A DNA stretch of 64,000 nucleotides from Escherichia coli. Lineage in GTDB: Bacteria > Pseudomonadota > Gammaproteobacteria > Enterobacterales > Enterobacteriaceae. This document shows positions 9,001 through 18,000 of the stretch, one piece after another. Location of the stretch: the NCBI RefSeq assembly GCF_003991155.1, contig NZ_CP031297.1. The stretch is one strand, 5' to 3'. Position 1 is the first letter of the stretch; each line of letters begins with the position of its first letter. A program made the position numbers.

Positions 9001-12000
9001 TTACCTTCGTAAGGGCAAGGAACTTGTTTGGTAATAACTGTCGCTGAGTAATCTTCGACACTTTCAAACCCATCGGGGCAACCATACCCCGACGGGGATG
9101 TTGCCCCTTTTTGCTTAGGAGCAACATCATGGAAATCGCTATCATCGCTTTGTGTATCCCTGCTGGTTGGGCAATCTCTCGTCCTTTCGTGAGAATCGCT
9201 GAATCGTTCGGTTACTGCTGATAGTCAACGCAAAGGGAGGGGGCAACCCCTCTCTTTCTGGTCAAGCCTCTGTGGCTTGTCCTCAAAGTCTTCTGGTGTC
9301 AGTTGGCTTTGACGACAAGCTACAGGGGGAATGTCGAATGCAACAGAATCTTCATGTTTACGACGATCACGCAGGCATCATCTATCTGGCTGATGGACGC
9401 GAGGTGAAATTTGATCCGAAACTGTATTCCAGCTCCTACCAGGCGCACAGTGAAGCAGTGAAGTGGGCCAAAGAAACCGGGGTCATTGGTCAAAACGACG
9501 ATGTGGTGATGTTCGTCCATTGAGGGAGTAGCCTCCAGGAGAGGCTACTCTCCTCGCTCCTTAAAAGTCTTCTTACTCATGGTGAATACCATCAGTAAGC
9601 AGATTTTGTTCTCTTCGGAGAGCGAAAAGTGCGATAGCTGGTCGCCAAAAACAAACAGCAAATTAACGTTAATTTACTAGCCCAACCGGGCGCATCCGCC
9701 CGGTTCGGGACGTGGTGCGCCTGTCACAATAGGAGCGCACCTATGTCTCAATACTCTCAATTCTCAGTAAGCAAGGTTTTCGGTATGCCCAGCATTCCGG
9801 AGAAGGTAACGGCCATCGGCTACGCTGACGGTTCAAACCCTTTCATCCCTGCCACTGATACCAACTACGTTTTCCGCAAAGAGTTTCTGCGAGAGGTCTT
9901 GGCCTATCTCAAAGAGCCTGGCGGTGACGCATTGTTCGTAACCGGCCCTACCGGGTCTGGCAAAACCTCAGGTATCACCGAGATCGCTGGTCGTCTCAAC
10001 TGGCCTGTTCAGCAAATCACTGCCCACGGGCGGATGGAGCTGACAGATCTGATTGGACATCACGCTCTGGTCGCGGAAAAGCCTGGTCAACCACCTGTCA
10101 TGAAGTTCATGTATGGACCTCTGGCAGTCGCTATGCGTGAAGGTCATCTGCTCCTCATCAACGAGGTGGATTTGGCCGACCCTGCCGAGCTGGCTGGTCT
10201 CAACGATGTCCTTGAAGGGCGTCCCCTTGTGATCGCTCAGAATGGCGGGGAAATCATCAAGCCGCACCCGATGTTTCGTGTGGTCGTTACTGGTAACTCT
10301 ACGGGGTCCGGTGATGCTTCTGGTTTGTACCAGGGGGTGATGATGCAGAACCTCGCAGCTATGGATCGCTATCGTTTCACCAAAGTAGGGTATGCGGATG
10401 AGGAAGCTGAACTCAGCATTCTTGGCCGTGCTACTCCGAAACTTCCGGAAAATGTGCGGAAGGGAATGGTTCGGATTGCTAATCAGGTCCGCAAACTGTT
10501 TCTTGGCGAAAACGGTGAAGATGGTCAGATCAGCGTCACCATGTCCACTCGGACGTTGGTGCGTTGGGCGAAACTGTCTCTAGCGTTCCGTGGTGCCCCA
10601 AATGCTCTTGAATACGCCTTGGATCAAGCTCTGCTTATCCGTGCGGCCAAAGAGGAGCGTGAAGCCATCCTGCGTGTTGCGAAGGATGTGTTCGGGGACC
10701 AATGGCGCTAAGAGGTGACGCATGAAGAAAAATGACTGTTTGTGCCGTCGTTACACTGCTAAAGAGTGGGGCAATGACGAAACCACAATAGAAGTCTTCA
10801 TTGGCTACAAGTTGCTCCGGGAGCCCAGCTCCTCGGAGCCAGGCCAATTCACGATGGTCGAGCTACGCCGAACCGTCACTGATGGGAAAGCTGAAAATTG
10901 GTCTGAGACAAAGCTCGAAGGACCTTTTGAAGCTAACGGCCCAGACACGATCCCAATGTCCTACAAGGACAAAGAAAGCCAGTATGTGTCACAGTTTCTC
11001 AGCCAGGGGTACACCTTTCTGGATGAGGTGCTGGTAAACGCAGAGACACAGACGGTGCTGGAAGGGGGGAATGTTTCAGCCGGACAAACAGCCAGCTTGG
11101 GATCTCTCAACTGGCTGTTATCTCCGCCCTCTGAGTTACCTCCAGGTGACATAAACCTCTTCAAAGGTTTTGTTGCTGGGGTTTTTGCCAAAGGAGCCGG
11201 TTTAATCGGCTTTGAGGTTGCTCGGAGCGAAGGCTCAAATGACTTGCTACCCAGTGTGCTGATGCGTACTGACAGCGGTTATGAGCTTGGGGTTAGCACT
11301 GGACTAGGCGAAAACACTATCCATCCAGCTACGCTGGAAGGCGCTGGTGAACTCCGCCCGGAACATGGTCACAAACCCCTGCTGATGTTGGTTTACCTGC
11401 AACAGCGTTTCGCGGATGACTTTTCAAACGTAGAGAAGCCGCTGGTGGCATTCTGTGATGAACAGGGTGATACCTTCGACTACGAGCGTTTTGATTCACT
11501 AAAACCCCTCATTGAACGGTTTGGTTTCAGCTACGACGAAGTAAGAGCAGATGCAGAAAGGCTTGGCCTTGTATCTGAGCTGATTCGCCTGGCAGAGATC
11601 GACGCCGAACAAGAGGATCACTTTTTTTAACCCTTACGGGGGCTTGCTCCCCGAAAGGGGCGTTGGCCCTCTCCAAATAACTTGGAGGTCATGATGTCTA
11701 AAGGCGTCAACAAAGTAATTCTGGTCGGTAATCTCGGTTCTGACCCGGAAATTCGCTACATGCCAAGCGGCACTGCCGTTGCCAACTTCAACGTTGCAAC
11801 AACGGATACGTGGCGCGATAAGCAGTCTGGCGAGCAAAGAGAGCATACTGAGTGGCACCGTATTGTGCTTAAAGGTCGTTTGGCGGAAGTCGCTGGTGAG
11901 TACCTGAAAAAGGGCTCCCAAGTCTATCTCGAAGGGAGCAACCGCACCCGGAAGTGGACTGACAGCCAACAAATCGAGCGCTACACCACCGAAGTACACT

Positions 12001-15000: not shown

Positions 15001-18000
15001 ACGGTCGAGGAGCGGATTGGCTTTGAGTACCAGGTGTTCATGATCCAGCCTGTGAACGAAGATGAGGCCAACGCCAAACGCCTTAACCGCAAGGTTGAGC
15101 GCCTGGGTGACGATCTCATCTCCGAAGTGGTTCAGGAAGCGAATAAGTTCTATATGGAACGTTTGGCCGGTCGAGACCAATGTGCGGTCACTACTCGGCA
15201 GACACTCCGTAACATCCGCGACAAGGTGGATGGGCTTAGCTTCCTGAACAGCGCTTTTAACCCTCTGGTCAAGCTGCTCGACCAAACCCTCCGGGGATAC
15301 GAGCAACATGCCGATGGCCGAAACATCGTTGCGCCTTTCTTTTATCAGGTCGTGGCCGCAGTGCTGATCATGAGCGAGAGGGACCGCATCGAGCAGTATG
15401 CCAATGGCTCGATTACTGTAGAGGGCATGGCTAATGACATTGGCGGTTCGGGAGCCCAGATGGGGGACCGTTCTAAAGATGAAAAGGCCGAACAGAAAAG
15501 CGATAAAGCCGGTGAGCTTATCCCTGCAACAGAGGGTGGCGAAACCAAGCAGCAACAGGTAGGTGGTACTGAATCTGTTCAATCAGAACAGACTAACAGC
15601 GGTGGTAACTCTGTTGACCTGGATGAAGACATCGACAACTTCTTCAAGAGTTTTGCAGAACGAGGCGAGGGTGAATCGGAAGATGAATCCAATGCCGGTG
15701 ATGTGGTTCGAGAAGAGCGTGTTGATGTTGAGGATGAGCTGGTTTTGCCTGAGGAAACTCCGGTAGAGCAAGAGCCTGTCCAAGAGGAGACGACAGAGGA
15801 GCCTCTCAACCAGGAGCTGCCTAAAACTGACGACGATGGCGACTATTTCTTCTAATAGTCACTTCAACTAAACCGACCCGGAGGGGATAGCCATTCCCTC
15901 CAGGGGTGGACTATCTCCTTCCCTACCAGGAGAAAAGATATGTCCAAAAAACGCACCATTTACAGCGCTCTACCAATCGTGGCCGCAGCCTATGGTGAAA
16001 AACTCGGTGTCAAAGTCGCCATCGGTAACGATGACGCATACACCGATGGTAAGACCATCGTGGTTCCGAATATCCCCGACGACTATCCTCACATGGATGC
16101 TGTCTGGGGGTATTTGGCCCATGAAGCAGCCCATGTCCGGTTTACGGACTTTGGTGTTGAGCGCCGCAGAGGTCTTCATGCTGAGTTGTCCAACGTTTTG
16201 GAGGACTGCCGCATAGAACGGGCCATGATGGAACTCTTCCCCGGTACGTCGCAGACCCTGAATGAGGTTGCTCGCTATATGGCTCAAGCTGGTCATTACG
16301 AGCACGTCACAGACAAAGAGGCCCCTGCCTCCATTCTGACAGGGTTTTGTTTGTACTGGTTGCAAACCAAGGCTGTAGGGCAATCCGTCCTTCAACCCTA
16401 TCTCGATTCGGCTACCCCCGTATTCGAGCGCGTGTTCCCTCAGGGTGTTGTTGTTCGGCTGAACGCTTTACTGCGTAAGGCTGTGAACACTAAGTCAACC
16501 GCAGAGGTGACATCCTTGGCCGACCAAATCATCAAGATGATCGAGGAGGAAAAGGAGAAAGAAGAGCAAAAGCCCCAGAATGGTCAGGATGGTAACAACC
16601 AGCAGAATGCTGGTGGCAACCAACCTCAGAACAGTCAGGGCGGAAGTGGTAACGATCAAAACCAAGGGCCTGATGCCAATGGTGGTGATCAGCAAGGTAA
16701 AGACCAGAAGCAAGACGATGCTAACGGGAAATCTGATCCGAAAGGACAGGGCGACCAAGGCAAGTCGGATACTGATGGTGGCAGCAAGGCAGGACAAAGC
16801 CAGGCTGGTGGCAATTCTGACGCGGCGAAACAAGACGCGGCCAAAATGCTCCAGCAGGTTCTGAATGCCGGTGCCGGTGATTTGCGTGGTGACGCGCATG
16901 ATGCACTTAAAGCCGAGCTCAACCGGGTGGCTCAAGATAAGGGGGACAGTAGCTATATGACTGTTCGCTCTGCTGTGAACACCCAGGACAACCCTGCTGT
17001 TGGCAAAAGCCTGGTAGGGGATGTGAAGAGCACCACTTCAAAGATAAGAACGCAGCTCTACGGATTGGTCCAGGCCAGCCAGCGAGTTGCTCACCGTAAC
17101 CAACGATCAGGGAAGCGTGTGGATGCTCGGAAACTACATCGTGTAGTGACGGGTGATACCCGCGTATTCCTCAAGCCAGAAGCCAAGAAACGCCCTAATA
17201 CGGCGGTTCACATCCTGGTTGATATGAGCTCCTCGATGGCCTACAAGGCCGCCAATGGAAAGGAGCGTCAAGACATTGCGCGGGAAGCGTCCTTGGCTAT
17301 TTCGATGGCTCTGGAAGCAATACCCGGCGTAAACCCGGCAGTCACCTTTTTTGGTGGCAACCGGAACCAGCCAGTGTTCAGTGTCGTGAAGCATGGAGAT
17401 ACGGTTCAGAATCGGGCCGGTCGGTTTGGGTTCAAAGCAACTGGCGGTACGCCTATGGCGGAAGCTATGTGGTATGCAGCTTTTGAACTCACCAAGACCC
17501 GTGAAGAGCGAAAAATGTTGATCGTAGTGACTGACGGGCAGCCTCAAAGAGCCCCGGCATGTCGCTCAGTGATTGACCTCTGTGAACGAAGCGATGTTGA
17601 GGTGATCGGCATAGGGGTAGAGACTACCGCAGTGTCAGGACTGTTCCAAAAGAACATTGTCATTGATGATGCGGCAGCTCTGCAACGCACACTGTTTAAG
17701 TTGATGGAGCGGTCATTGACTGCTTTTGCAGCTTAACAGGAAGTGAAACGACAAACGGCTATCCCTTCGGGGGTGGCCGTTTTTATTTGGAGAGTCTATG
17801 AACCAATTCCATTCATCTTTGGATTTGTATCATCGGAACAAAGGTAGAAGGGCTACAGTGCCGGAGACGCCTTTTTTACTGCTTGCTAAGCGCATTCCTC
17901 CGATGTACTGGAGACTGTTCCAGGGTGTTACTTTGGATAGTCGTATGGGATACACAGGCAGGCGGCAGTTCCACCGTCTTGGGCAAGCAATCGACTGGGC

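Follow-up and report, generated by a model that had tools for sequence, protein, structure and literature searches.

We analysed a 64,000-nucleotide stretch of Escherichia coli DNA (assembly GCF_003991155.1, contig NZ_CP031297.1), hereafter the window, which is an IncC plasmid backbone. Seven genes on its plus strand, between positions 9743 and 17736, correspond to vcrx089-vcrx095 of plasmid pVCR94, where vcrx089-093 were defined as the "hde" operon (Roy 2020, PMC7498323). The gene for an AAA+ protein and that for a 302-amino-acid protein are vcrx089-090, which act against type I restriction-modification, and ssb, bet and exo are vcrx091-093; orthology was assigned from domain content and order, which agree with those published for vcrx089-090 and ssb-bet-exo (PMC7498323). 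Beyond the operon as published, which ends at vcrx093, lie genes for a DUF3150 protein and for a protein with a von Willebrand factor A (vWA) domain and a peptidase-like domain. We found that the AAA+ and vWA proteins are related to CobS and CobT, the ATPase and adaptor of cobaltochelatase, and that they occur together with DUF3150, and often Vcrx090, on plasmids, integrative and conjugative elements (ICEs) and phages. Four proteins of the operon also have similar C-terminal tails. The genes and the main features are as follows.

9743-10711, plus strand: CobS-like, MoxR-class AAA+ ATPase, Vcrx089 (322 amino acids; Pfam AAA_5 and CbbQ_C)
10722-11630, plus strand: Vcrx090, a fast-evolving candidate adaptor (302 amino acids; no family)
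11691-12221, plus strand: SSB, Vcrx091 (Pfam SSB, E 7e-37)
12316-13305, plus strand: Bet, RecT-family single-strand annealing protein, Vcrx092 (Pfam RecT, E 4e-28)
13368-14378, plus strand: Exo, YqaJ-family exonuclease, Vcrx093 (Pfam YqaJ, E 4e-26)
14578-15855, plus strand: DUF3150 protein, Vcrx094, third conserved component of the cassette (Pfam DUF3150, E 4e-91)
15940-17736, plus strand: CobT-like adaptor, Vcrx095 (598 amino acids; Pfam CobT and VWA)
17753-17782, plus strand: intrinsic-terminator-like hairpin (13-bp stem with 7 GC pairs, followed by a T-run)

The hairpin starts 17 nt past the stop codon of the vWA gene and, judging from its sequence, is likely to mark the end of the operon; no comparable hairpin was found on the plus strand between 9743 and 17736. 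Published work placed vcrx089-090 with ssb-bet-exo in an AcaCD-controlled operon, and reverse transcription PCR revealed a single transcript from Pvcrx087 that reaches at least vcrx094 (Roy 2020, PMC7498323). Rfam returned no RNA family across 8000-19000. All seven open reading frames (ORFs) proposed in the first-pass annotation of the window were confirmed on the plus strand, and translation placed the Walker A motif, HEAAH, the DMSSSM adhesion site dependent on metal ions (MIDAS) and the low-complexity linker where it had located them. These reading frames and motifs are not due to chance, because the 8-kb region is at least 99% identical in 727 PLSDB plasmids (pSN254 among them; IncC-type where the records were checked) and the motifs are invariant even in relatives of only about 20% identity.

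Relationship of Vcrx089 and Vcrx095 to CobS and CobT

Vcrx089 carries a Walker A motif, GPTGSGKT, at 9944-9967 and a Walker B motif, LLINEVD, at 10151-10171. Its profile aligned over the full length of the solved CobS structure (9ujv; E 1.8e-52, positions 6-325 to residues 15-317 of 328) and gave weaker matches to NorQ (E 1e-26) and CbbQ (E 8e-25). Residues K74, E141, N185, R209 and R250, which comprise the Walker A lysine, the catalytic glutamate and the sensor and arginine residues, are invariant among the AAA members, and the Walker B aspartate is replaced by asparagine in 63 of 74 of them, whereas canonical Rhizobium CobS has DE. The protein scored 105 bits with the NCBIfam CobS model TIGR01650, far under its equivalog cut-off of 558.55.

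Vcrx095 has the four-part plan of CobT, namely an M48-like N-domain, a disordered linker, a "shaft" segment and a vWA domain with a MIDAS, located as follows.

16120-16134, plus strand: HEAAH, N-domain
16201-16218, plus strand: EDCRIE, N-domain
about 16546-16875, plus strand: disordered low-complexity linker rich in Q, G, N, D and K
about 17047-17196, plus strand: "shaft" segment
17221-17238, plus strand: MIDAS DMSSSM of the vWA domain, with T504 and TDG at residues 531-533

The vWA profile matched residues 102-617 of CobT (9uka_G; E 6e-38) in an alignment that covers both the shaft and the MIDAS, and NCBIfam gave no match for this protein. Across 46 relatives with identities down to 19%, some of which were found without use of the motif, H61, E62, H65, E88 and D89 do not vary. 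Among the matches of a word-based search, 119 of 120 retain HExxH together with E88/D89, the lone exception being a Bet-vWA deletion chimera, and the MIDAS residues DxSxS..T..D are likewise invariant among the relatives. At the site of HEAAHVRFTD in the Vcrx095 family, a canonical Rhizobium CobT, encoded beside cobS, has GDSMALRLACHD. By this sequence comparison, for which one canonical CobT was examined, the HExxH...E site is kept in the Vcrx095 family and lost in canonical Rhizobium CobT. A predicted model of the N-domain consists of helix a1, a b-sheet and further helices, as described for CobT_N. A Foldseek search of this domain against the PDB gave no match (E at least 0.49), the CobT_N entries apparently being newer than that library, and phmmer against the PDB gave nothing but a chance match to COMMD3. 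The first-pass annotation had described the two proteins as the halves of a MoxR-vWA type pair, one of them with a metalloprotease-like motif; the pair can now be assigned to the CobS/CobT type (E 2e-52 and E 6e-38 to the solved proteins), and the HExxH motif is real and conserved in relatives.

In the CobSTN structures (9ujv, 9uka), the CobS ring encloses the CobT shaft, the small domain of CobS is bound by the N-domain of CobT (described as "resembling peptidase M48C"), and CobN is clamped between this N-domain and the MIDAS face (bioRxiv 10.64898/2026.07.21.739949). NorQD operates by the same principle as CobST. The NorQ-NorD and CbbQ-CbbO systems likewise combine an AAA_5/CbbQ_C ATPase with a vWA partner, whose finger reaches into the ring pore and whose MIDAS face is turned to the client, so that ATP drives the remodelling of a specific target; they differ from the pair described here in their lower similarity, in the lack of an HExxH domain in NorD and CbbO, and in their metabolic clients (NOR and Rubisco). 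Vcrx089 and Vcrx095 resemble CobS and CobT more closely, down to an M48C-like N-domain, a disordered linker of about 100 amino acids and genes that are adjacent in most relatives. Unlike CobS and CobT, however, they occur without CobN (no ORF of at least 1000 amino acids exists in the window) and without a cobalamin context, have DUF3150 and Vcrx090 as additional conserved partners, mostly show N-E in Walker B, and reside on plasmids, ICEs and phages beside genes of DNA metabolism.

Composition and gene order of the cassette in mobile elements

To survey the locus, a genome scan yielded 187 relatives, of which 80 loci were kept, and viral and metagenome scans added further loci. All were annotated with iterated hidden Markov models, and dereplication at 80% vWA identity, with at least 7 kb of upstream sequence required, left 52 loci. 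The AAA gene lies upstream of the vWA gene on the same strand in 51 of these and directly downstream of it in the 52nd, so the pair occurs in all 52. DUF3150 was found in 46, Bet and/or Exo in 32 and Vcrx090-like proteins (X090) in 27. Among the 86 first sources (the window and L001-L085), Vcrx090 homologues stand directly after the AAA gene in 58. In the plasmid and genome group, with the window left out, Bet/Exo occur within 10 kb in 32 of 43 loci.

Three layouts were distinguished. In 14 loci, from IncC and SXT-like elements of Vibrio, Shewanella, Marinomonas, Halomonas and Comamonas, Bet/Exo lie between the AAA side and the DUF3150 side of the cassette; in IncC, 3.9 kb of other genes separate its two halves. 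In a further 18 loci (Methylomonas, Chromatiaceae, Endozoicomonas and IncT-like plasmids), Bet/Exo lie upstream of a contiguous cassette. The remaining 20, including all nine viral clusters, have no Bet/Exo within the flanks. AAA and vWA are adjacent wherever Bet/Exo are not inserted. Protein searches agreed with this arrangement: vWA homologues at 26-78% identity were found in many plasmids, the order AAA-(small protein)-DUF3150-vWA is uninterrupted in Rhodanobacter, Xanthomonas, Methylophaga and Citrobacter plasmids, and the cassette is contiguous in phage contigs too. Relatives collected from the AAA side had a vWA gene in 10 of 10 cases (L089-L096, L118, L119). A metagenome scan seeded with AAA was swamped by the generic Walker A pattern and gave two true relatives, both with the full trio; the DUF3150 alignment was too divergent to serve as a seed for locus searches.

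The 52-locus survey therefore indicates that the AAA-vWA pair is co-conserved, that the true unit takes in DUF3150, and that the bracketing of ssb-bet-exo by the pair, which the first-pass annotation had emphasized, is the gene order of one lineage: it holds for IncC and SXT, whereas elsewhere the cassette is contiguous and Bet/Exo are upstream or absent. The same annotation had taken the pair as a two-gene unit; the conserved unit instead comprises three or four genes (AAA, the 302-amino-acid protein, DUF3150 and vWA). The protein that it had noted for an acidic tail does have one, and it is the DUF3150 protein, the third conserved partner of the pair.

The neighbours of the surveyed loci include ssb, recT, exo, toprim, tra genes, DNA polymerase and similar genes. 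Three groups of phage contigs have the trio at a distance of 1-2 kb upstream of genes that encode an exonuclease, a helicase and DNA polymerase A. In the SSU5-like E. coli phage-plasmid pLR-60_2 (L129, 6001-12561), an AAA gene and a gene for a CobT-like protein (HEVAH, ED..ER, DLSGSM) precede dnaE. Phage and phage-plasmid relatives (L129, L102, L114, L094) thus adjoin DnaE or Pol A, exonuclease and helicase genes, and given this context and their intact HExxH, the public labels that assign them to cobalamin or porphyrin biosynthesis are doubtful. Plasmid Rts1 (IncT, NC_003905) has the order SSB-RecT-exo-hypothetical-MoxR-DUF3150-vWA; here (L130, 8530-11692) an IS2 insertion interrupts the CobT-like vWA gene and leaves the upstream AAA and DUF3150 genes intact. 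Deletion of the Rts1 stretch with the cassette was reported to give a relative conjugation of 0.21 between E. coli strains, and deletion of bet or exo 0.013-0.014. From these phage, phage-plasmid and Rts1 contexts, the cassette lies outside the transfer machinery and accompanies genes of DNA replication and recombination on mobile elements.

Some further observations concern these loci. In a Rhodanobacter plasmid (L002, 11722-12918) and a Xanthomonas plasmid (L004, 12108-13247), the gene next after vWA encodes a primase-like protein with a toprim domain. Some genomes, namely those of Methylomonas methanica (L022, L031, L040) and M. fluvii (L028, L037) and a Mycoavidus metagenome-assembled genome (MAG; L012, L025), have the whole SSB-Bet-Exo-AAA-X-DUF3150-vWA block in two or three diverged copies, which suggests several related integrated elements per chromosome. 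A 960-amino-acid DUF3150-vWA fusion ORF in a MAG (L073, 8837-11719) was considered as Rosetta-stone evidence and left unused, as its Arg/Gly-rich, out-of-frame-looking junction is probably a frameshift artefact. The SXT gene s063 was ruled out as the AAA gene, being a divergently transcribed neighbour. In the window itself, past about 36 kb (36000-64000), the GC content alternates in blocks between about 44% and 66%, the backbone being at about 51%, which is consistent with resistance or transposon insertions in the IncC backbone.

DUF3150, Vcrx090 and the acidic-aromatic tails

The DUF3150 protein Vcrx094 comprises a helical-bundle core (amino acids 1-280), an acidic disordered region and a C-terminal tail. 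Its predicted model contains an a/b element and long helical bundles (predicted local distance difference test score, pLDDT, 78.8); a structure search returned generic four-helix bundles only (TIP47, CheA-P1 and FAT domains), with no functional lead, and a sequence profile search found no match in the PDB. The family counts 1688 cluster representatives in 1.84 billion proteins. Vcrx090 had no match in Pfam, PHROG or NCBIfam and no sequence match in the PDB. Its relatives share an N-terminal pattern, LYR..DGTSKDWA…RWGR.G…KGY, that is reminiscent of WGR domains, and Pfam WGR (PF05406) matched 3 of 17 of them (E up to 1; best E 0.002, sub-threshold), though not Vcrx090 of the window. From this pattern, the N-terminus of Vcrx090 is possibly WGR-like.

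Four non-homologous proteins of the operon end in similar acidic-aromatic tails.

11607-11627, plus strand: Vcrx090 tail, EQEDHFF
13288-13302, plus strand: Bet tail, EGSYY
14358-14375, plus strand: Exo tail, VETFYW
15835-15852, plus strand: DUF3150 tail, DGDYFF

The tails vary in step within each element, as their last five residues in five lineages illustrate (a dash where no Bet or Exo tail is given).

IncC: X090 EDHFF, Bet EGSYY, Exo ETFYW, DUF3150 GDYFF
Vibrio ICE: X090 EDSYF, Bet DGNYF, Exo ESAYF, DUF3150 QDCYF
Methylomonas: X090 DDCWF, Bet –, Exo VDFWF, DUF3150 QDYWF
Chromatiaceae: X090 DGFYF, Bet –, Exo HGFYF, DUF3150 EGFFF
Methylophaga: X090 TAICF, Bet –, Exo –, DUF3150 AAFCF

Two or more aromatic residues in the three C-terminal positions were found in 63/83 DUF3150, 49/54 Exo, 40/46 X090 and 9/52 Bet proteins, as against 27/1234 background ORFs of the same loci (about 2%); the tail is thus typical of the DUF3150, Exo and X090 families as a whole. 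The AAA and vWA proteins never have the tail, and several unassigned ORFs within the cassettes do. An unbiased profile search gave the same picture, with 109 of 129 new DUF3150 representatives ending in F, Y or W. Within an element, the likeness between DUF3150 and Exo tails was 0.55, compared with 0.33 after shuffling (p 1e-4), and that between DUF3150 and X090 tails was 0.50 compared with 0.38 (p 0.017), in each case over 34 clusters and uncorrected for phylogeny.

The matching sequences suggest one docking site common to several proteins. One candidate receptor is the vWA protein, at its MIDAS or HExxH face, for which the CobN site and zincin-linked MoxR-vWA systems offer analogies; the other candidates are the AAA pore and a host hub protein. 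Acidic C-terminal tails with an aromatic last residue are also present on E. coli SSB (DDDIPF) and on T7 gp2.5 and gp4. As in those cases, several proteins of one DNA-metabolism module carry an acidic tail with an aromatic last residue, a hallmark of a common docking site; the cassette tails differ in having two or three aromatics, in being on non-SSB proteins and in covarying within an element. A role of the tails as a signal for translocation by a type IV secretion system is unlikely and was set aside, since phage-encoded DUF3150 proteins are tailed too and donor expression of vcrx089-090 did not complement.

The SSB of the plasmid departs from the usual form in another way. The phenylalanine of the SSB tail is normally C-terminal for partner binding, whereas here (12192-12221) DDDIPF is followed by a nine-residue extension, MRLHHLAGG, so that the phenylalanine is internal. 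The extension is not a sequencing artefact, because it is kept with substitutions in two other loci (ARLHYMAGG in L011, MRLHPLEGG in L087).

A putative remodelling machine and its alternatives

Published experiments assign vcrx089-090 a protective function against type I restriction, by a mechanism termed novel and unknown (PMC7498323). Their deletion lowered transfer into hsdR+ Vibrio cholerae 25-fold, and complementation succeeded only with expression in the recipient, donor expression having failed; the plasmid used in this test still carried vcrx094-095 (PMC7498323). In a second study, the same deletion raised EcoKI and EcoBI restriction 400-900-fold (Dimitriu 2024, PMC11602122). The role of the pair, which the first-pass annotation had considered unexplained, thus has a published half, namely anti-restriction in the recipient by vcrx089-090 (PMC7498323, PMC11602122). 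Transposon sequencing contrasted Cas+ with Cas- recipients (PMC7498323), and because both were hsdR+, this screen was blind to any anti-restriction role of vcrx094 or vcrx095. In the literature searched, vcrx095 was unmentioned, vcrx094 appeared only as a reverse transcription primer and DUF3150 occurred in one unrelated preprint. What was already known is therefore the AAA+/vWA principle, together with half of the phenotype. That literature describes neither the cassette of four genes nor its relationship to CobS/CobT, nor does it mention a CobT-like subunit that retains a peptidase motif, the tails common to several of the proteins, or the phage relatives that carry cobalamin annotations.

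We favour, with moderate confidence, the explanation that Vcrx089 and Vcrx095 belong to one CobS/CobT-type remodelling machine, the former as its motor and the latter as its adaptor, which would form the anti-restriction half of the hde operon. Mobile elements would carry this machine as a cassette with DUF3150 and usually a small fast-evolving protein (Vcrx090); in the IncC/SXT lineage ssb-bet-exo lie inside the cassette, and the whole would be one operon up to the terminator after vWA. The machine would act in the recipient just after DNA entry. By analogy with CobST and NorQD, we infer a physical complex in which a hexameric Vcrx089 ring grips the shaft ahead of the vWA domain, while the M48-like HExxH domain and the MIDAS face hold a client at the position that CobN occupies in the chelatase. 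ATP hydrolysis would then remodel the client or, conceivably, since the HExxH...E site is intact, lead to its cleavage. DUF3150, Vcrx090, Exo and sometimes Bet may be recruited through their common tail. The machine would probably be aimed either at the type I restriction complex or at nucleoprotein on DNA ends, which would subsequently be passed to Exo and Bet.

The first alternative holds that two independent modules share the operon, with Vcrx089 and Vcrx090 self-sufficient in anti-restriction and DUF3150 and vWA unrelated to them. It would agree with the two-gene definition in the literature and in AntiDefenseFinder, where vcrx089_090 and vcrx091_093 are entered as separate systems, with the lack of a reported phenotype for vcrx094 and vcrx095, and with the 3.9 kb between the halves in IncC. 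However, the characterised ATPases of the CobS/NorQ/CbbQ type work through a vWA partner, AAA and vWA co-occur in 52/52 loci and are neighbours wherever Bet/Exo are not inserted, Vcrx095 has kept the ring-engaging shaft, and X090, the supposed partner, is less conserved (27/52) than DUF3150 (46/52) or vWA (52/52). We consider this alternative unlikely.

The cassette could instead be an accessory of Red-like recombination that loads or remodels, assembles, recycles or regulates SSB, Bet and Exo at DNA ends, anti-restriction being a by-product of better break repair; ssb, bet and exo do repair Cas3 double-strand breaks (PMC7498323). The presence of Bet/Exo within 10 kb in 32/52 loci fits this proposal, as do the covarying tail that Exo and, in some lineages, Bet share with DUF3150 and X090, and the position of phage and phage-plasmid cassettes beside DNA polymerase, exonuclease and helicase genes or DnaE. 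Deletion of vcrx093 (exo) also raised EcoBI restriction 426-fold (PMC11602122). By contrast, 20/52 loci have no Bet/Exo in their flanks, and EcoKI sensitivity increased only in the vcrx089-090 mutant (PMC11602122). Furthermore, transfer into restricting V. cholerae was reduced by deletion of vcrx089-090 and unchanged by deletion of ssb-exo, the anti-restriction activity in this host being independent of ssb-bet-exo (PMC7498323). A primary role in recombination therefore seems improbable to us.

A MoxR-vWA defence system directed against phages or competing elements, the conflict-system link raised in the first-pass annotation, is unsupported and very improbable. MoxR-vWA ternary systems (VMAP/iSTAND) are widespread in conflict, and some of them are associated with zincin peptidases, by which proteins with conserved peptides at the C-terminus are processed (Kaur et al. 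2020 eLife); the cassette resembles them in combining an AAA+ protein, a vWA protein and a third conserved protein in fixed gene order. It differs in its AAA+ clade and has neither VMAP/iSTAND nor effector domains on the vWA protein, and CobS, CobT and DUF3150 are unmentioned in that study. PADLOC gave no meaningful defence match, with a marginal mad8 match for the AAA protein (E 2.7e-4) and none for the other three proteins of the cassette. The cassette shows no variable effector domain and occurs in lytic-type phage contigs beside replication genes, and the published phenotype is anti-defence, exerted in the recipient (PMC7498323).

A genuine cobaltochelatase, present as an auxiliary metabolic gene pair for cobalamin synthesis in line with many annotations, is effectively refuted: CobS and CobT are the closest curated families, PHROGs labels relatives "porphyrin biosynthesis" or "cobaltochelatase" and some records say cobalamin synthase or CobT, but CobN is absent from the window, the NCBIfam CobS score falls far short and CobT has no NCBIfam match, the HExxH lost in canonical Rhizobium CobT is intact, the setting on mobile elements is always one of DNA metabolism, and the experimental phenotype is anti-restriction.

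In a bolder form of the CobS/CobT-type remodelling machine, which we advance as speculation with the odds against it, the CobS/CobT scaffold would support a split metalloprotease that is ATP-dependent and FtsH-like. The Vcrx089 ring would pull on the HExxH-vWA protein Vcrx095, DUF3150, Vcrx090, Exo and Bet would dock through the co-evolving tail as an "address tag", and host restriction complexes would be destroyed or stripped from the incoming DNA.

Multidrug resistance is spread to a large extent by IncC plasmids and SXT/R391 elements, whose evasion of host restriction depends on vcrx089-090. Assignment to the CobS/CobT class of ATPase provides concrete point mutants and binding assays for the question of how vcrx089-090 work. 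Three findings bear on this question: the apparently obligate vWA partner, whose HExxH is intact, the position of DUF3150 in the distal part of the same operon, and the putative docking tail that Exo and Bet also carry. The findings also imply that the two-gene definition in anti-defence annotation tools is incomplete. Many of the "cobS/cobT cobalamin auxiliary metabolic genes" of phages and viromes may be remodelling machines linked to DNA entry or replication and, if the split-metalloprotease proposal were true, they would represent a general early-entry device for anti-defence and DNA establishment in phages, phage-plasmids, ICEs and plasmids.

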